Below, piece after piece: positions 10,354-60,838 of a stretch of DNA of 64,000 nucleotides. The stretch is from Candidatus Omnitrophota bacterium (GTDB lineage: Bacteria; Omnitrophota; Gorgyraeia; Gygaellales; Profunditerraquicolaceae). The notes beneath the pieces are model-generated. The model saw nothing but the letters and a program-made list of their open reading frames with translations. It was not told the origin of the DNA and did not search any database. The stretch lies in the NCBI GenBank assembly GCA_050012075.1, contig JBEKHW010000004.1, positions 8,864-72,863 of the forward strand. The letters are read 5' to 3'. Made by a program: the position numbers and the translations under genes. Numbering within the stretch: the first letter of the stretch is position 1; every line of letters starts with the position of its first letter.

Positions 10354-12006
10354 ATGAATAAAGATTTAAAATATATCCTCATCCTGTTTTTCCTCGGTTA
10401 CTTTTTTTTATTCTTCGGTAATGGTTTAATCAGCCTGACGAGCCCCGATGAAGTTTTTTACGCCCAGACCGCAAGAGAGATGAGCCAGCATCATACCTGG
10501 ATGACGCCCATTCTTTTTGACCAGCCGCAGTTTGAAAAGCCGATTCTTACTTATTGGCTTTTAAGGATAGGGTTTATAATCTTTGGAGTCAGCAGTTTCT
10601 CCGCGCGTTTTTTCCCCGCTCTGTTTGGGCTTATCGGCGTGATCGCGGTTTACCTCTTCGCAAAACTGCTTTTCGAAGACCATAAAAAGGCATTTATTTC
10701 GGCGCTGGTGCTTTTATCCGCCGGTTTCTATATAGGTATGGCAAGGACTGTTTTTACGGATATGGTTTTTTCTGTATTGGTCCTTCTTTCACTGCTTAGT
10801 TTCTTCTGGGGATACGCTTGCGAAAAATGGAAAGGGCCTGGGATTATATTGTTTTTTATTTTTTCAGCGCTAGCAGTCCTTGCAAAAGGGCCGCTAGGTT
10901 TATTTATTCCGTTTTTGGCCGTAGGCGTCTTTTTGCTTCTAGAAAGAAAAATAAAATTTATATGCTCCAGTTATGCTTTGTGGGGGATACTCATTTTCTT
11001 AATCATTTCCTTACCCTGGTATATTCTTATGACTGCCAAATACGGCCAGGCCTTCCTGCATGAATTTTTTTATAATGACCATTACCGCAGGCTTATTGAG
11101 GCAGAACACGGGGGAAGCGACAGGTGGTATTTTTATCCTTTTACCATGCTTGGATGTATGTTTCCCTGGAGTATCTTTGTCGCGGTTTCCCTTTTTTATC
11201 TTTTCTGGCGCATAAGCAAGCCAAGGACCGCCGACCTTTTCATTGTCAGCTGGATTGCCTCTACTTTATTGGTTTTCCAGCCCGCCCACTCGAAATTGAC
11301 CAGCTATATTCTACCGCTTTTCCCTGCCCTGGCTTTGGCATGCGGTGATTTTATTTATGATTGCATAGCGCATAAGGAGAGAAAACGATTACTCTTTATT
11401 CTTTTGGCTTTAATATGGGCCATCCTGCTATTTATCGCAGTGGGAGTTGTTTTTGCCTCTTTCAAATTCTCCAATTATATCTCTTCTCCGAGCCCTGTTT
11501 GTTTTCTTACCATGGTTTTTATCTTATGGCTTTCGGTACTTTTGTTTTACATTGCCAGGCATAAATACAATACAGCTGTTTATTTGCTTGCCCTGTGTGT
11601 GCCCGTAATGCTTTCGGTAGTCCCGTTTATACATCGGGATATCGAAGTGAATTTCTCTTCACAATACGCCTGTGGATATTTATTGAAAAACTACTCGCCC
11701 GATCGAGAATCGTACGTGTTAGCTTCCAAGGATTTTGCCAGGGGAACGCGCTACTATACCGATATGAAAGTAGCGGTATTTGCCCCGCGCGCAAAGAATT
11801 TCTTCAGCCCTCACCCCATACCATTTCTGGATACTGATGGAAAAATCTTGGATTTCCTGCGCCAACATCCCCTGGTTTATTGTTTCCTCAAGAAATCGTC
11901 CTTAGAGAATCTAAAGAGCGCACTGAATAAGGATTTCGAGTATCGGATCCTTAACTTAATCGGGAACCAATATATCGTAAAGATCCAACAAATCCGGCAC
12001 GATTAG
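10354..12006 (+). CDS. GT-C fold glycosyltransferase (ArnT/PMT family, GT39/GT83-like)
   Basis: 550-aa polytopic protein. The N-terminal periplasmic loop has the SPDE..FY motif typical of ArnT/PMT2 enzymes. Confidence 0.65.
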   Translation: MNKDLKYILILFFLGYFFLFFGNGLISLTSPDEVFYAQTAREMSQHHTWMTPILFDQPQFEKPILTYWLLRIGFIIFGVSSFSARFFPALFGLIGVIAVYLFAKLLFEDHKKAFISALVLLSAGFYIGMARTVFTDMVFSVLVLLSLLSFFWGYACEKWKGPGIILFFIFSALAVLAKGPLGLFIPFLAVGVFLLLERKIKFICSSYALWGILIFLIISLPWYILMTAKYGQAFLHEFFYNDHYRRLIEAEHGGSDRWYFYPFTMLGCMFPWSIFVAVSLFYLFWRISKPRTADLFIVSWIASTLLVFQPAHSKLTSYILPLFPALALACGDFIYDCIAHKERKRLLFILLALIWAILLFIAVGVVFASFKFSNYISSPSPVCFLTMVFILWLSVLLFYIARHKYNTAVYLLALCVPVMLSVVPFIHRDIEVNFSSQYACGYLLKNYSPDRESYVLASKDFARGTRYYTDMKVAVFAPRAKNFFSPHPIPFLDTDGKILDFLRQHPLVYCFLKKSSLENLKSALNKDFEYRILNLIGNQYIVKIQQIRHD

Positions 12007-15925: not shown

Positions 15926-17065
15926 ATGGATAAGAAACGTATCGCAATCGTTACGTACGGCTGCCAGATGAATGTTAGGGATTCGGAAGTAATTTGCGGC
16001 CTTCTCCAGAAGGCTGGGTTTAAGATTACCGAAGATGAGAAGGCGGCGGATATAGCTATCTTTAATACCTGTTCTGTGCGCCAGCACGCAGAAGATAAGG
16101 TTTGGTCGGCAGTGGGTATGACAAAAGCTGGAATTATCGGTATCGTAGGATGTATGGCGAATAATTACCGCGAGGCGATTTTCGAGAAGGCGCCAAAAGT
16201 GGATTTTGTGGTTGGGACATCTGATATTGCCAAGATGCCCGGCATAATTAAGGAAATACAAAAACATAAAGGCGGATTTCTTGCCAAGAAGATTTATGAA
16301 ACAGACGCGGATTACAGGGAAGATGAGATTTACCATACAGGTTTTCATCTGGATAAAAATCACGCTTTTGTGGTGATTTCTGAGGGGTGCGAGAACTATT
16401 GTTCATACTGCGTGGTCCCTTATGTGCGCGGGAAGTTGCGCTCACGTAATCATCAGGATATCCTTGATGAAATAAAAGAGGATATTGACTCCGGAATAAC
16501 GAAAATAACCCTGCTTGGGCAAAATGTCAACGCATATGTTTCAAGCGCACAACCCACAGCGCATAACGCACAACGAACAAGATTTGTCGAGTTGTTAGAA
16601 ATGGTAAACGATGTAAAGGGCCTTAAAGAATTCACTTTTGTCACTTCTCATCCAAAAGATACTTCGGTAGAATTATTTAAGGCGATGGCAGAGCTGGAAA
16701 AATTAAAAAAACACCTTCACCTTCCGGTGCAGTCAGGTTCAGACAGAATTCTAAAGCTAATGAACCGCGGTTACACCAGAAGATTCTATTTGGATTTGAT
16801 AGAGGATTATCGTAAAATAGTAAAAGACGGGGCGCTCTCTACTGATATCATTGTCGGTTTTCCCACTGAAAATAAAGACGATTTCCAGGATACTTACGAC
16901 CTGGTAGGAGGTGTCGAGTTTGATGCTGCCTACATATTCAAGTATTCCGTAAGGCCGCATACGCAGGCAGCCAGTATGCCTGATGATGTAGAGAAGAAGG
17001 AGAAAGAAAGAAGACACGGGTTAATTTTGGAATTACAGAAGGAGATATCACGAAGAAAGAAATGA
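15926..17065 (+). CDS. MiaB/RimO-family radical-SAM methylthiotransferase lacking the C-terminal TRAM domain
   Basis: The MTTase N-domain has three Cys. The radical-SAM motif CENYCSYC is present. The protein ends after the radical-SAM core with a Lys-rich tail (379 aa). Confidence 0.75.
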   Translation: MDKKRIAIVTYGCQMNVRDSEVICGLLQKAGFKITEDEKAADIAIFNTCSVRQHAEDKVWSAVGMTKAGIIGIVGCMANNYREAIFEKAPKVDFVVGTSDIAKMPGIIKEIQKHKGGFLAKKIYETDADYREDEIYHTGFHLDKNHAFVVISEGCENYCSYCVVPYVRGKLRSRNHQDILDEIKEDIDSGITKITLLGQNVNAYVSSAQPTAHNAQRTRFVELLEMVNDVKGLKEFTFVTSHPKDTSVELFKAMAELEKLKKHLHLPVQSGSDRILKLMNRGYTRRFYLDLIEDYRKIVKDGALSTDIIVGFPTENKDDFQDTYDLVGGVEFDAAYIFKYSVRPHTQAASMPDDVEKKEKERRHGLILELQKEISRRKK

Positions 17066-22178: not shown

Positions 22179-22206
22179 TTGACAAACTATTAATTTATGT
22201 TAAAAT
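22179..22206 (+). promoter_or_regulatory. Putative sigma70 promoter (TTGACA-16-TAAAAT) of the heat-shock operon
   Basis: Read directly. It ends 6 nt before the CIRCE element. Confidence 0.45.
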
Positions 22207-22212
22207 TACCTT

Positions 22213-22239
22213 TTAGCATTCGAAAGGAAAGAGTGCTAA
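22213..22239 (+). promoter_or_regulatory. CIRCE operator (HrcA binding site)
   Basis: TTAGCATTC-N9-GAGTGCTAA matches the CIRCE consensus TTAGCACTC-N9-GAGTGCTAA with one mismatch. It lies about 35 nt upstream of hrcA. Confidence 0.7.
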
Positions 22240-23629: not shown

Positions 23630-25525
23630 ATGGCAAAAGTAATCGGTATCGATTTAGGGACTTCTAATTCGGCAGCTGCGGTAATGGAAGGCGGCAGGCC
23701 TGTGATTATACCTTCTGCGGAAGGCGCGGGTGTGGCTTCCGGAAAGGCATTCCCTTCTTATGTCGCTTTTACAAAGGACGGCCAGCGTCTTGTCGGTGAA
23801 CCTGCCCGCAGGCAGGCGGCAATTAACGCTGAAGGGACAATCCAGGCTGCCAAGCGCAAGATGGGCACGGACGATAAATTCAAGGTTTTTGGCAAGGAGT
23901 ATACGCCGCAGCAAATCTCCGCGTTTATCCTGCAGAAGATAAAACAGGACGCGGAGGCGTACCTGGGCGAGAAAGTTGAAGAGGCAGTAATTACCTGCCC
24001 TGCTTATTTCAATGATAACCAGAGGACCGCTACAAAAGACGCCGGAGAAATAGCGGGCTTAAAGGTGTTACGCATAATCAATGAGCCTACGGCAGCATGC
24101 CTTGCCTATGGTTTAGAGAAGGCCCAAAAAGCGCAAAAGATCATGGTTTTTGATTTAGGCGGCGGGACCCTGGATGTCACCATAATGGAGATGGACCAGG
24201 GTGTTTTTCACGTGCAATCAACTTCAGGCGATACGCAGCTGGGTGGCACAGATATGGACAAGGTTCTGCTTGAGTATATCGCCGGGCAGTTTAAGCGCGA
24301 AACTGGAATAGAGCTTCTGAATGATAAAATGGCAGTGCAAAGGGTGCGCGAGGCAGCAGAAAAGGCCAAGATCGAATTATCTTCGACTGTCAGCACGGAT
24401 ATCAATCTTCCTTTTATTACGGCGGATGCGACAGGGCCTAAACATTTGACTATGAATATTACCCGCGCAAAACTGGAAGACCTGATTTCTCCGATTATTC
24501 AAAGGTGCCGCCATCCAATGGAACAGGCGCTCTCGGATGCAAAGTTGACCAGTAGCGAAATCGACCGCATTATCATGGTGGGTGGTCCAACAAGGATGCC
24601 TATCGTGCAGAAGTTCGTCGAAGATTACGTGGGCAAGAAGATAGAGCGTGGGGTTGACCCTATGGAATGCGTTGCTTTGGGTGCCGCGATTCAGGCAGCG
24701 ATCATTACCGGAGAGGTCAAAGACGTTCTTCTTCTGGATGTTACCCCGCTTTCCCTGGGTATTGAAACATTGGGAGGGGTAAACACAAAATTAATAGAGA
24801 GGAACGCTTCTATCCCTACTCAAAAAAGCCAGGTTTTTTCTACTGCGGCGGATAACCAGACCGCGGTTACCATCAGGGTCCTGCAGGGTGAGCGCCAGAT
24901 GGCAGACGATAACGTGGAATTAGGAAGGTTTGACCTGGTGGGTATACCGCCAGCACCCAGGGGTGTACCGCAAATTGAAGTAAAATTTGATATTGACCGG
25001 GACGGGATTGTGCATGTTTCAGCAAAGGATTTAGGCACCGGTAAAGAACAATCTATCCGTATCACCGCGCCCAAGAAACTCTCCAAGGAAGAAATAGACA
25101 AGATGGTCAGGGACGCGGAGAAATTTGCGGCTGAGGATACCAAGAAAAAAGAAGAGGTTGAAACTGTCAATCAGGCAGATACCCTGGTTTATGCCACTGA
25201 AAAATCCCTTAAGGATTTCGGGGATAAAGTCAGCCAGAGTGAGCGTGCCGACATAGAGGCCAGGACAAATGATTTGAAGGCAGCGATTAAAGATAAAAAC
25301 GTGGACAGGATTAAGAAAGGCATGGAAGATTTGACCCGCGCTTCGCATAAATTAGCCGAAGAGATATACAAGCAGGCAGGCGCAAAGCAGCAGCAGTCTC
25401 AGCAGCCAGGGCAGGGCCAAGGGCCTCAGCAGGAAGCACAAGAAGAGCCAAAGGGCTCCGCAGGCGGAAAAGAAGATGTGATTGACGCGGAGTTCAAGGA
25501 AGAGGACGATAAAAATAGTAAATAG
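23630..25525 (+). CDS. dnaK: Molecular chaperone DnaK (Hsp70)
   Basis: [19 protein letters not shown] and a C-terminal Gly/Gln-rich tail ending EEDDKNSK. Confidence 0.95.
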
Positions 25526-25592
25526 TTCATAGTTGATAGTTCATAGTAAAATATTGTACCATTAACCATGAACAATGAACTATGAACCATTA
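25521..25592 (+). repeat. Family-A palindromic element copy 1: 2x AGTTCATAGT, an A-rich loop, then 2x inverted units
   Basis: TAGTTCATAGTTGATAGTTCATAGT...CATGAACAATGAACTATGAACC. It starts at the dnaK stop codon. Confidence 0.6.
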
Positions 25593-25596
25593 TATA

Positions 25597-26754
25597 ATGA
25601 GCACTAAACGCGACTATTATGAATTACTGGGTGTAAAAAAGAACGCAACCCTTGATGAGATAAAGAAAGCTTACCGGGAGTTGGCGTTGAGGTTCCATCC
25701 TGACCGCGTTCCCCACGAGCAGAAAAAGGAAGCGGAAGAGAAATTTAAAGAGATCTCCGAGGCCTACGCAGTCCTGTCAGATTCCCAGAAGCGTGCGCTT
25801 TACGATCAGTACGGGCATTCCGGAATAGACCAGAAATACGCCTATGAGGATATATTCAAAGGCGCTGATTTTTCAACTATTTTTCAGGATTTAGGTGATT
25901 ACGGCGTTGGAGGAGGGCTTTTTGAAGATATTTTTAGCGACCTGGGGTTTGATATTTTCGGAGGAAGGTCTTCTTCCCGTGGTACGGGAAGGCGCAGGGG
26001 CCGTGATTTACAGATAGCAGTTTCTATTACCCTCGAGGAAGCAGCTACGGGAACTGAAAAGACAATAAGCGTCCCCCGTTATGAAACTTGTTTTACCTGT
26101 TCAGGAAGCGGCGCAAAGCCGGGGACAAAAAGAATTACCTGTCCTCAGTGCAGAGGTTCCGGCCGCACGGTCGTATCAAACGGATTTTTCCAAATGGCAC
26201 AGACCTGTTCACGCTGCAGAGGAGAGGGCTCTACGATTCAGGCGCCCTGCCCTGATTGCCGTGGTGAAGGCAGGACAAAAGTCACCCACAAGATAAAGGT
26301 CAAGATACCTGCCGGAGTAGACAATAACTCAAGCCTCAGGGTCAGGGGTGAGGGTGAGGTAGGTGCTGCAGGCCATGGAGACCTGTATGTAGTGATTGAA
26401 GTAATGCCCCATTCTGTTTTTGAGCGGCATGATAACGATATAATTACTCAGGTGGGTATAAGTTTAAGCAAGGCGATCCTGGGAGGAGAAATAGAGGTCC
26501 ATACGTTAAACGGGAAAGCCAGTATGAAAATTCCGCAAGGCACGCAATCAGGAAGGATTTTCAGGTTAAAGGGGAAAGGGATACCGGATTTGCACGGTAG
26601 GGGGATAGGGGACGAGTTAATAAAAGTAGATGTCCAGATACCTGTTAGGTTGACACCCGAACAGCGTAAGCTGATTGAGGAGTTTGCCAGGCTTTCGGGG
26701 GAACAGGTAAATTCAGAAACTTTTACAGAAAGAATAAAGAAAACTTTTCGATAG
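25597..26754 (+). CDS. dnaJ: Molecular chaperone DnaJ
   Basis: J-domain with HPD, a Gly/Phe region, and four CxxCxGxG zinc-finger repeats. The internal Met ([13 protein letters not shown]) is preferred as the start. Confidence 0.9.
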
Positions 26755-26824
26755 TTCATAGTTAATAGTTAATGGTTCATGGTACGAGTCTTACTATGAA
26801 CTATGCACCATGAACTATGAACTA
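26752..26824 (+). repeat. Family-A palindromic element copy 2
   Basis: TAGTTCATAGTTAATAGTTAATGGTTCATGG...CTATGAACTATGCACCATGAACTATGAACT. It starts at the dnaJ stop codon. Confidence 0.6.
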
Positions 26825-26849: not shown

Positions 26850-27116
26850 ATGCCTACATACGAATACGAATGTTCACATTGCGGTCATAAGTTTGAATTA
26901 TCTCAGAAGATGACTGACAAGCCGGTAGAGAAGTGCCCTGAATGCCATAAGAAAGTCAGGCGCCTTATCGGCAGCGGCTCAGGTATTATTTTTAAAGGAA
27001 GCGGATTTTACGCCACGGATTACCGCAAGGGCTCGAAAGGCGAAGCGCAAAAATCCAAACCAGCTACCTGCCCGAAGGCGAAAGACGGTTGTAATGCCTG
27101 CCGGAAAATGGATTAA
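26850..27116 (+). CDS. FmdB-family zinc-ribbon protein
   Basis: MPTYEYEC.HCGH...CPEC, the typical FmdB/putative regulatory Zn-ribbon N-terminus. Confidence 0.6.
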   Translation: MPTYEYECSHCGHKFELSQKMTDKPVEKCPECHKKVRRLIGSGSGIIFKGSGFYATDYRKGSKGEAQKSKPATCPKAKDGCNACRKMD

Positions 27117-52993: not shown

Positions 52994-53045
52994 TAAGTGG
53001 ACAGGCCCCGTTAGACGGGGCAGTCCTGTTAGATAAAGTCGTCTA

Positions 53046-53552
53046 ACGGGGCAGGTAGGATGTGGCCGCCCGCCATTGAATAAATGGCGGGAGGAAAGTC
53101 CGGGCTCCAGAGGACAGCGTAACGGGTAACGCCCGTCTCCGCCGGATAATACCGGTGGAAGGATCTCCGCCATAATACATGGCGGACCCGCCAATATTTT
53201 TGGCGGGAGAGCCACAGAGACGAGCAACCGTTGCTTCGCAACGGAGTTAATAGTTGATAGTTCATAGTTGATGGTTTAAAGGTAAAACTAAGAACCATGA
53301 ACAATGAACCATGAACTCCCGCGCGAAGCGCGGGGAGGTGAAACGAGGCAATCTCTACGCGGAGCAAGGCCCAATAGGAGATGAGCGCTGGTCCGGCGCA
53401 TCCCTGTCAAGCTATTCAATAGCAGGCGGGGATTTAATCTCGGGTAAGCTGCTTGAGCCCCTACGGCAACGTCGGGGTCGAGAGGAATGGCCACTTTGGA
53501 TGCGGTTATTCGTATCGAGACAGAACCCGGCTTATCCTACCTGTCCCACTTA
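53046..53552 (+). ncRNA. rnpB: RNase P RNA (bacterial type A) carrying an internal repeat-element insertion
   Basis: Conserved blocks GGAGGAAAGUCCGGGCUCC (53089-53108), GGUGAAA, GGAGCAAGGCCCAAUAGG, GCUGCUUGAGCC and ACAGAACCCGGCUUAUC (53520-53536). P1 pairs 53048-53059 with 53536-53547. Confidence 0.8.
53249..53317 (+). repeat. Family-A palindromic element copy 3, located inside rnpB between the P11 and P12 regions
   Basis: TAGTTGATAGTTCATAGTTGATGGTT...AACCATGAACAATGAACCATGAACT has the same unit structure as the dnaK/dnaJ copies. Confidence 0.55.
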
Positions 53553-53584
53553 TTACGAATATGCAGGAACTAGTCACCAAGATA

Positions 53585-53645
53585 CCATGTCACCACGTCA
53601 CAAGTAAAATCTTTGACTTGTGACTTTGTGACGTTGTGTCATTGC
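53585..53645 (+). repeat. Family-B palindromic element (GTCAC units): TGTCACCACGTCACAAG, an A-rich loop, CTTGTGACTTTGTGACGTTGTG
   Basis: Inverted tandem GTCAC/GTGAC units, read directly. Lies between rnpB and yebC. Confidence 0.55.
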
Positions 53646-53674
53646 GACCATTATTAATTTAACGGGAGGCTAAA

Positions 53675-60116: not shown

Positions 60117-60808
60117 TTATCGCTATTGACGGGCCTGCAGGCGCAGGAAAGAGCACTATCGCAAAGAAGGTAGCCTGGAAACTGGGCTTTCTTTATATTG
60201 ATACGGGTGCCATGTACAGGGCGCTTGCTTTAAAGGCTATAAAAGAAAATGTTGATATCGCTAGTACCCATAAAATAATCAGTATGACTGCAAGGGCCAC
60301 TATTAATTTAATCAATGACCCGGACGGCACTCTCCAGGTGATGCTTGACGGAAAAGATGTAGGAAGCCAAATACGGCAGCCGGCAATAACCAAAGTCGTT
60401 TCAGATATAGCAAAAATAAAGGAAGTGCGCCAGGTCATGGTGGGCCTGCAGAGAGAGCTGGGGAAGCGCGGCAATAGTGTCCTGGATGGGCGCGATATAG
60501 GCACAGTGGTTTTTCCCAATGCCGAGAAGAAGTTTTACCTGGATGCTGATTTTGCTGAGCGCAGCCGCAGGCGTTATAAGGAGTTGATTGAGGCAGGCCA
60601 GCAGGTGACGCTGGAAAGTGTACAAGCTGATGTAAAGAATCGCGATAATATTGATTCTACGCGCGAGGTAGGGCCATTAAAGCAGGCAGAAGACGCGATT
60701 TATATAGATAGTACTAATATGAGTATTGAGGAAGTAGTTGAAACAGTATTAAGGCACATCAAGTCACCAAGTCACAATGTCACCAAGTCACAGGAAAAAA
60801 CTTTGTGA
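60113..60808 (+). CDS. cmk: Cytidylate kinase (C-terminal 17 codons encoded by a Family-B repeat)
   Basis: IIAIDGPAGAGKST P-loop with NMP-binding and LID regions. The tail HIKSPSHNVTKSQEKTL overlaps the repeat. Confidence 0.85.
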   Translation: MIIAIDGPAGAGKSTIAKKVAWKLGFLYIDTGAMYRALALKAIKENVDIASTHKIISMTARATINLINDPDGTLQVMLDGKDVGSQIRQPAITKVVSDIAKIKEVRQVMVGLQRELGKRGNSVLDGRDIGTVVFPNAEKKFYLDADFAERSRRRYKELIEAGQQVTLESVQADVKNRDNIDSTREVGPLKQAEDAIYIDSTNMSIEEVVETVLRHIKSPSHNVTKSQEKTL

Positions 60809-60838
60809 CTTTGTGGCTTGGTGTACTTTGTGACCCTC
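60758..60838 (+). repeat. Family-B palindromic element, large copy: 4x (A)AGTCAC units, GAAAAAA, 4x inverted units
   Basis: CAAGTCACCAAGTCACAATGTCACCAAGTCACAG...CTTTGTGACTTTGTGGCTTGGTGTACTTTGTGAC, read directly. Confidence 0.6.

Follow-up and report, generated by a model that had tools for sequence, protein, structure and literature searches.

The repetitive sequences of heterocystous cyanobacteria known as STRR (short, tandemly repeated, repetitive) have as their units the heptamers CCCCAGT, TTGGTCA and CAACAGT, and STRR-type heptamers reportedly occur inside a gene for RNase P RNA as well, in what is said to be its P12 helix. In enterobacteria and pseudomonads, extragenic hairpin repeats known as repetitive extragenic palindromes (REPs), bacterial interspersed mosaic elements (BIMEs) and REP doublets forming hairpins (REPINs) are present in many copies per genome, often within operons, and REP hairpins stabilise the mRNA upstream of them; a REPIN consists of two inverted repeats and forms a hairpin of about 70-110 nt, and the copies of a REP have a full-length consensus in common and are linked to the REP-associated tyrosine transposases (RAYTs). 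The Omnitrophota are abundant, uncultured bacteria with small genomes, and to our knowledge almost nothing regulatory has been described from them. Here we report that a 64,000-nt stretch of contig JBEKHW010000004.1 from a Candidatus Omnitrophota bacterium (hereafter the window) contains hairpins made of heptanucleotide and octanucleotide simple sequence repeats (SSRs), and that such hairpins are recurrent and fast-turning-over in the Omnitrophota loci that we sampled. The three copies on which the analysis centres, designated family A, lie at the junction of dnaK and dnaJ, directly behind dnaJ, and inside rnpB (Table 1). The elements are confined to tolerant places: tight intercistronic gaps, the variable region at the tip of an rnpB helix and, in the case of solo arrays, disordered or hydrophobic protein segments.

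In family A the repeat unit is a heptamer, TTNATNG with the consensus TAGTTCA, and Tandem Repeats Finder (TRF) finds period 7 in all six arms of the three elements, with 3.4-5.4 copies per arm. Each element spans about 70 nt and is composed of about four tandem units, a loop of 1-17 nt and about four reverse-complement units; in the register of the stop codon, the left arm reads TAGTTCA TAGTTGA TAGTTCA TAGTAAA. The arms are thus head-to-tail arrays, above chance, of a unit between 5 and 11 nt, which is how a heptanucleotide long simple sequence repeat (LSSR, sensu Mrazek 2007) is defined. An earlier note on this DNA, although correct in the coordinates of the elements, had parsed each arm as two copies of a 10-nt unit separated by 4 nt, a mistaken reading that hid the fact that the arms are heptanucleotide SSRs of the kind known from cyanobacteria (STRR) and Xanthomonas. 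It had also described the copies as near-identical: unit and architecture are indeed common to them, but their A/T-rich loops are mutually unrelated, and so is the order of the unit variants. Within the window, AGTTCATAGT at no more than one mismatch has 15 matches where 2.8 are expected (a count of 15 was reached in none of 100 shuffles), and the three-unit pattern TTNATNGTTNATNGTTNAT has eight matches against an expectation of zero (100 shuffles). Among the local inverted repeats of the window these three rank highest, and their RNAs are predicted to fold into single interrupted stems of 24-30 bp at -20 to -30 kcal/mol (z -5.2 to -7.4), so that the description of them as long imperfect hairpins without a U-tract stands.

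Both elements next to dnaJ adjoin stop codons, as the note had said, and do so by sharing sequence with them, the stop TAG in each case being the first TAG of the first unit. In element 1 this TAG (25523-25525) doubles as the stop of dnaK, and the ATG of dnaJ follows five bases past the right arm; in element 2 it occupies 26752-26754, and the gene that comes next, encoding a zinc-ribbon protein, has its ATG at 26850 and its own AAGGAG Shine-Dalgarno (SD) sequence 3' of the hairpin. Stable stems that stand immediately 3' of stop codons might be taken for rho-independent terminators, which the note had listed among its readings, or for attenuators, in either case where dnaK and dnaJ end. However, the stems are A/T-rich, no run of T lies 3' of any family-A element, and a terminator scan returned no terminator-like site at either of the two; one copy, moreover, lies inside a functional RNA gene, and several hairpins of this kind separate an SD sequence from the start codon of the cistron that follows. 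Of all the explanations weighed here, we regard this as the least probable.

The third copy does lie within rnpB. The gene matches the Rfam covariance model RF00010 with 164.2 bits (gathering score 100) over model positions 1-367, and the cmscan alignment places the insert in the P12 region, after ACAGAGACGAG. In the closest relative, locus L282, which is the nearest genome compared at the DNA level (84% identity for DnaJ and 91% for YebC), rnpB has no P12 insert, and a heptamer element in P12 was found in none of five other species checked (L282, L283, L284 and L286-L290, the last five loci being one species). Because the element is absent from these species, its insertion is lineage-specific. 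The P12 region of rnpB in the window consists of three adjacent hairpins, and the gene has two further expansions relative to L282, one of about 41 nt (aligned gap) after P7-P9 and one of about 29 nt in the P15-P17 region (window 53140-53215 and 53395-53432). Just 5' of rnpB, at about 53003-53055, is a small hairpin motif, CCCCGTTAGA...TCTAACGGGG, that recurs in L234 at about 11775-11825, where its 50 nt are inserted by comparison with L225 (95% identical).

From genomes and metagenomes of other Omnitrophota we retrieved 160 dnaJ loci, of which 149 (1.76 Mb) were non-redundant; these were searched with a custom hairpin and periodicity script, which requires arms of at least 18 nt that are at least 72% complementary and a loop of at most 45 nt. 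The close DnaJ relatives in GTDB genomes are all Candidatus Omnitrophota metagenome-assembled genomes; the scan of JGI metagenomes with DnaJ orthologues returned no relative above 83%, and one YebC protein, P0002, is 99% identical to that of the window. Periodic arms were present in 107 of 285 strong hairpins, with a period of 7 in 90 and of 8 in 17 and essentially no other, and block-shuffled controls contained no periodic hairpin. Tandem repeats show the same preference irrespective of pairing: the 149 loci hold 181 arrays of period 7 and at most 41 of any other period, and solo direct arrays are as common as paired ones. The note had proposed a test for enrichment between genes and behind stop codons. 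In the census, co-directional genes flank 90 of the 95 elements that could be classified, and a single one is inside an open reading frame (ORF); over half begin no more than 10 nt from the stop codon upstream, with a median distance of about 15 nt to the start that follows. Occupancy is uneven: 43 of 141 loci (30% of species) have the dnaK-dnaJ junction filled, 21 of 140 have an element after dnaJ, and the figure for other junctions is roughly 5%; accD-ABC transporter, DUF1015-accD, grpE-dnaK and ROK-transaldolase are also recurrently occupied, and most junctions never are. Unrelated GC-rich or non-periodic hairpins occupy the dnaK-dnaJ junction in other lineages.

The elements fall into 41 unit families across the 149 loci, and several families coexist on the contig itself, a metagenome contig (ENA) of 89 kb, which we surveyed over 82 kb by adding the flanking loci L291 and L292. 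A second family in the window, family B, has the tandem-then-inverted design of family A with an octamer unit, AAGTCACC; it is also present in L156 and L252. A fourth family-A locus, at the pta-ackA junction upstream of the window (L291 146-215), brings the number of family-A arrays within 82 kb to four; its two arrays (TAGTTCATAGTTCTTAGTT ... GGTTCATAGTTAATAGTT) are direct repeats of each other, with a small GC-rich hairpin, CCGCCGGAGGCGG..., between them, an arrangement that recalls the small dispersed repeats said to be nested in heptamer arrays of cyanobacteria. The third family, TAGGTTG, is found at gatC-gatA about 5 kb past the end of the window, with arrays at L292 16433-16465 and 16627-16660. 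Here the left array is directly 3' of the gatC stop, and its inverted counterpart, 166 nt downstream, falls within gatA, where it is part of a variable loop that precedes the LxGxPxxxKDN motif. Because these two arms enclose the start and the first 48 codons of gatA, the pair was not inserted as one piece. Among the readings that the note had listed, a dispersed, REP-like family of hairpin-forming intergenic repeats is therefore borne out by the fourth family-A array, by the octamer family of the window and by the 107 sites in related loci.

Arrays are also built into real coding regions. In the gene for a MiaB-like radical-SAM protein, the window has a solo array (Table 1), and at the corresponding point of the protein, just before a conserved F-x-K/E-L-L-E motif, heptamer arrays of other kinds are found in other lineages (L165 2632, L244 566, L182 759), so that the position looks like a recurrent hot spot of in-frame insertion. 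Heptamer arrays at the 3' end of dnaK (e.g., CAGAGAA x4; L127 6189, L153 9767, L194 7397, L235 3461, L252 1558, L132 4522) are translated as part of the disordered C-terminal tail of DnaK in several species, which means that SSR arrays supply coding sequence besides spacers. Likewise, heptamer arrays rich in T (TTACTGG, GGTCTGT and others) seem to code for the hydrophobic signal-peptide core of an LptD-like outer-membrane protein, just 5' of the conserved VNGD-x-IEY start of the mature protein (L125 18127, L153 18841, L156 9970, L172 10949, L196 17599).

Table 1. Coordinates of the repeat elements and their host genes in the 64,000-nt window
Feature	Position	Strand	Details
Family-A element 1	25521..25592	+	dnaK-dnaJ junction; arms 25521-25550 / 25562-25591, 83% complementary; loop ~25551-25561; predicted fold -20.2 kcal/mol, z -5.3
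Family-A element 2	26752..26824	+	directly 3' of dnaJ; 36-nt arms 26752-26787 / 26789-26824, 81% complementary; predicted fold -30.5 kcal/mol, z -7.4
Family-A element 3	about 53243..53319	+	rnpB P12 region; flanked by two short GC hairpins; predicted fold -24.8 kcal/mol, z -5.2
Family-B element 1	53572..53648	+	octamer AAGTCACC/AAGTCACA, between rnpB and yebC; -30.3 kcal/mol, z -5.0; absent in L282
Family-B element 2	60751..60834	+	octamer, between cmk and lepA; -40 kcal/mol, z -6.0
Solo heptamer array	16546..16580	+	CGCACAA x5, in MiaB-like radical-SAM coding region
dnaK	23630..25525	+	Hsp70; third gene of the hrcA-grpE-dnaK-dnaJ operon
dnaJ	25597..26754	+	ORF-list start 25582 falls inside the hairpin; true start 25597
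rnpB	53052..53547	+	bacterial RNase P RNA type A; 496 nt, against 331 nt in L282

The note had proposed a comparison of presence and absence at orthologous sites. What recurs there is the architecture, and the units either differ or are missing altogether among close relatives: species whose DnaJ is 88-95% identical have at dnaK-dnaJ a different unit family, a non-periodic hairpin or the empty site TAA-TG-ATG. The units found at this one site include TAGTTCA, TAGCGTA, TAGTAGG, AGCTGTC, GTATTGC, octamers and others. L282 has another unit at dnaK-dnaJ and no element at rnpB P12, at rnpB-yebC or at cmk-lepA, where its two genes overlap; after its dnaJ the census listed no periodic hairpin, a site that was not separately inspected. 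How the arrays change in length is seen in L153 and L254, which are 99.92% identical over 15.7 kb and differ by a sole indel, a whole AAAAATG unit within the arm of a hairpin; though observed once, this is direct evidence that copy number changes unit by unit through slippage. Pairs of elements from the same genome share their unit family in 33% of cases, as against 3.7% between genomes (a 9-fold difference) and about 0.9% by chance, so unit types spread or are homogenised inside a genome, with a restricted set of them in circulation among the lineages sampled.

Dominant families within genomes, together with the recurrence of the same families in distant lineages, are what might be expected of a non-autonomous element resembling a REPIN or a miniature inverted-repeat transposable element (MITE), i.e., a hairpin copied by a transposase encoded elsewhere, such as a RAYT or another enzyme of the IS200/IS605 type. 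Elements of 65-90 nt are similar in size to REPINs. An apex motif around the loop, AGTAAAATCTTTNAC, which is common to several unit families and takes approximately the form AGTAAAATCTTT(T/G)AC in roughly 15-20% of the 107 elements, also fits such an origin (examples are at window 53596-53620, L255 6947, L264 7028, L206 158, L232 11155 and 13999, L156 2250 and L207 29), as does a non-periodic hairpin, GGGGTCAGAATTATTTTTT-(loop)-AAAAAATAATTCTGACCCC, that occupies dnaK-dnaJ in L212, L244, L277 and L280 and is nearly identical across three DnaJ clusters; the latter is a separate hairpin element, possibly mobile or recombining. However, copies of one family, as in the window and in L232, share the 7-nt unit and nothing more, since their loops, unit order and copy number all differ, and a comparison of filled and empty dnaK-dnaJ sites in close relatives places the insert between TA(A/G) and (T)G-ATG with no evident target duplication. 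A classical MITE or REPIN would leave a different pattern, and a classical cut-and-paste or copy-paste element, one form of the mobile elements that the note had listed, is likewise not supported. Also at odds with transposition are the arms set 166 nt apart around essential coding sequence at gatC-gatA, the solo direct arrays that equal the paired ones in number, and the 82 kb of contig, among whose genes no transposase-like Pfam family is annotated. We therefore consider an origin by transposition unlikely.

Heptamer arrays as a kind are already known from cyanobacteria, Xanthomonas and Beggiatoaceae, and heptamers are, according to the passage on them in PMC4679880 (citing Mrazek 2007), the most abundant class of long SSRs in bacteria and ascribed to polymerase slippage. 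Cyanobacterial STRR sequences (Mazel 1990; Vioque 1997) are the nearest counterpart: like the Omnitrophota elements, they are short tandem arrays of 7-nt units, belong to several families and are dispersed between genes, and they are transcribed with their neighbours, as the Omnitrophota elements would be. Element 3, within the P12 region of an RNase P RNA gene, is a further likeness, and so is the presence of several dispersed tandem families, three on 82 kb (A, the octamer family B and TAGGTTG) and 41 in the 149 loci. In contrast to STRR, the units here are TAGTTCA, AAGTCACC and others, octamer and heptamer families coexist, an inverted pair of arrays is the normal intergenic form, and dozens of unit families swap at orthologous sites. 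Since both the host phylum and the unit sequences differ, we call the elements STRR-like rather than STRR.

In Xanthomonas, GGGAATC heptamers form 70-75 convergent inverted pairs per genome that are able to form stem-loops, most of them transcribed (Rehm et al. 2015, PMC4692102). These are, as in Omnitrophota, mostly intergenic SSRs whose length varies between close relatives, but they have one G-rich unit with G-quadruplex potential, and 83% of their sites are conserved between two species, whereas we find many A/T-rich units without G-tracts and rapid turnover. The TAACTGA repeats of Beggiatoaceae, cyanobacteria and Bacteroidetes are intergenic heptamer arrays of 2-6 copies near start codons, and their unit likewise contains stop codons, so that overlap with gene ends is limited to a few nucleotides (PMC4679880). 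They differ in being a single unit in direct repeats, with 169 direct sets to one indirect and no predicted structure (MacGregor 2015, PMC4679880), while inverted hairpin pairs are the intergenic rule here. As for function, the best analogy is provided by REP and REPIN sequences, which are hairpin-forming repeats between the genes of operons; unlike them, the Omnitrophota elements have only a 7- or 8-nt unit in common, their arms are internally periodic, their pairing register is degenerate, and no transposase was found nearby (82 kb). The literature that we searched contains no description linking Omnitrophota with such repeats. What is new, then, is the phylum, the inverted pair as default intergenic form, the many A/T-rich heptamer and octamer families with one architecture, the mutual replacement of families at orthologous sites, and the incorporation of arrays into coding regions.

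The arrays could also serve as phase-variable contingency loci, tuning neighbouring genes by copy number, or they could offer a series of sites to a protein that binds DNA or RNA. In Haemophilus influenzae, a heptamer SSR lies in a transcribed non-coding region and tunes expression through RNA structure and an RNase III-targeted element of the 5' untranslated region (5'-UTR) (PMC12721329); it differs from the elements here in being a long array of direct repeats, located in an adhesin gene's promoter and 5'-UTR, in showing classical phase variation and in lacking an inverted arm. The one natural difference of 7 nt in copy number, noted above, would suit such a role, and for heptamer repeats of Nostoc and Beggiatoaceae a function as sites of protein binding has been proposed. 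On the other hand, at least 41 unit sequences for one architecture speak against a single sequence-specific binder, and the sites are in housekeeping operons and rnpB, not in surface or virulence genes; furthermore, the arrays are short (3-5 units) and were identical in five independent samples. Either form of this explanation seems to us very improbable.

The explanation that we prefer combines an origin by slippage, as STRR-like repeat hairpins, with spread within genomes, persistence where the folded hairpin is harmless, and REP-like action. In this scheme, arrays lengthen and shorten by whole units through replication slippage, as the natural indel of 7 nt shows; a unit type would spread to further sites of the genome by whatever mechanism, and the inverted arm would arise through a strand switch or inverted copying. 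Selection would retain only harmless insertions, in gaps between co-directional genes, at the peripheral tip of an rnpB helix, or in disordered or hydrophobic protein segments. The elements would be transcribed as part of an operon mRNA, in this case that of the CIRCE-controlled hrcA-grpE-dnaK-dnaJ operon, and their arms would pair into an interrupted stem of 24-30 bp, reaching from the stop codon to a point a few nucleotides short of the next start. The insert would thereby fold away, leaving the stop codon or SD sequence near the next start codon. Most likely, the stem would then behave as REP hairpins do, as a barrier to 3' exonucleases or as a processing site for double-strand RNases, with the dnaK part of the message outlasting dnaJ; in rnpB, the element would merely lengthen P12. 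Taken as a whole, we judge this explanation probable, if by no means assured, and the part that concerns identity and slippage is held with considerably more confidence than the REP-like action.

Two features of the hairpins bear on how an insert could be accommodated. In L122 and in L155/L163 the hairpin stands between the SD sequence and the start codon, the empty relatives being L204 and L140, and from such a position normal translation of the downstream gene is to be expected only if the insert folds away. In addition, complementarity of the arms is 0.81 in the native register, 0.74 after a shift by one unit, and 0.25 out of register. Because native and shifted registers differ so little (0.08), the pairing is mostly a consequence of the shared unit; for the same reason, the hairpins are register-degenerate and thus robust to the gain or loss of units.

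If selection acted on the pairing of the sense-strand RNA, an excess of G-U over A-C mismatches would be its signature; stems contain 65 G-U and 54 A-C mismatches on the sense strand, which is no such excess, and neither the orientation test nor the wobble test revealed a signature at the RNA level. In many elements the two arms have been homogenised independently, leaving one systematic mismatch per unit (L172, L152, L187), which argues against strong selection for perfect pairing. These points weigh against the explanation that we prefer, and others have to be set beside them: the RNA-level role is one that we infer; hypermutability of the arrays is contradicted by five samples of one species in which a heptamer hairpin is identical; at least the gatC-gatA pair, with its arms 166 nt apart around essential sequence, is not a one-piece insertion; and the enrichment at dnaK-dnaJ could result from recombination through the very conserved flanking genes, not from function.

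Several of these results would also fit a neutral or selfish process, in which the hairpins have no effect on expression and are by-products of heptamer slippage and inverted copying, persisting only at places where the cell does not notice an insert that folds on itself. Such junk would account for the lack of G-U bias and for the arm-specific periodic mismatches, for a complementarity that comes mostly from the shared unit, for the rapid alternation of presence and absence among close relatives, and for arrays in tolerant coding segments such as the DnaK tail, the MiaB-like loop and signal peptides. It does not readily explain why the dnaK-dnaJ junction is occupied about 6-fold more often than the average junction, or why unrelated hairpins fill that junction in other lineages, which suggests that a hairpin is favoured there; and an mRNA stem of 25-30 bp is unlikely to be inert to RNases and ribosomes. 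This is the main rival to our explanation, possible and to be taken seriously, though we find it doubtful.

A more far-reaching proposal is that the Omnitrophota possess a dedicated DNA transaction that writes tandem arrays with units of 7-8 nt, usually paired in inverted orientation around a common A/T-rich apex (AGTAAAATCTTTNAC), both at the borders of genes and in coding loops that tolerate them, and that the hairpins are a lineage-wide means of controlling operon stoichiometry after transcription, read by double-strand RNases or by a repeat-binding protein. The writer may be a repeat-adding polymerase, a reverse transcriptase or primase, or strand-switching break repair, and heterocystous cyanobacteria, Xanthomonas and Beggiatoaceae may have evolved similar array-writing independently. 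We put this forward as a speculation that is rather unlikely to be correct.

Two candidate signals within the arrays were set aside. The promoter-like match at 25569-25598, inside element 1, overlaps the ATG of dnaJ and cannot serve that gene. As a selected three-frame stop signal the arrays were likewise rejected: blocking of all three frames is commoner than in shuffles, but there is no arm or strand bias (31 vs 23), and the excess follows from the arithmetic of period 7 with a heptamer that contains a stop.

The operon that bears elements 1 and 2 has, in front of hrcA, a controlling inverted repeat of chaperone expression (CIRCE) operator at 22213-22239, TTAGCATTC-N9-GAGTGCTAA with one mismatch, and directly 5' of it a promoter-like TTGACA-16-TAAAAT (in the window region 22179-22239); with these two putative sites, heat-shock control of the operon is expected. 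Every ORF of the window that has 150 aa or more and appears genuine is on the + strand; GC skew stays positive along the whole window, the cumulative skew rising monotonically; and the related-species loci are about 96% co-directional. The only large gene on the opposite strand of the contig, beyond the end of the window (L292 12500-15703, - strand), encodes a 1067-aa protein with no Pfam match.

Heptamer arrays are present in viral collections as well. Four copies of TTNATNG proved too unspecific as a tracer of family A in public collections, where the arrays matched on at least 120 IMG/VR viral contigs (loci L002-L121) were mostly unrelated A/T-rich heptamer arrays, and DnaJ orthologues were then used instead, in one genome scan and one metagenome scan. 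Some of the IMG/VR arrays are inverted pairs (L040, L045, L046), some contigs have several heptamer families side by side (L034, L042, L076), and a GGTTTATGGTTAATGG array is recurrent in many related phage contigs among the matches listed.

If hairpins of this kind are the main source of intergenic DNA in the compact genomes of Omnitrophota, they would explain much of the variation in spacer length between orthologous operons, and they would offer a ready marker for strain typing, as STRR-based PCR does in cyanobacteria. For annotation, they mean that gene callers can be misled, both because the ORF list extended dnaJ into a hairpin and because arrays also occur in real coding regions. The elements amount to a natural experiment on tolerance of insertions, in which only inserts that fold away would persist. 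Finally, because the sharp limit to periods 7 and 8 is found in a phylum unrelated to cyanobacteria and Xanthomonas, comparative genomics can test why slippage favours heptamers and how inverted arrays arise.

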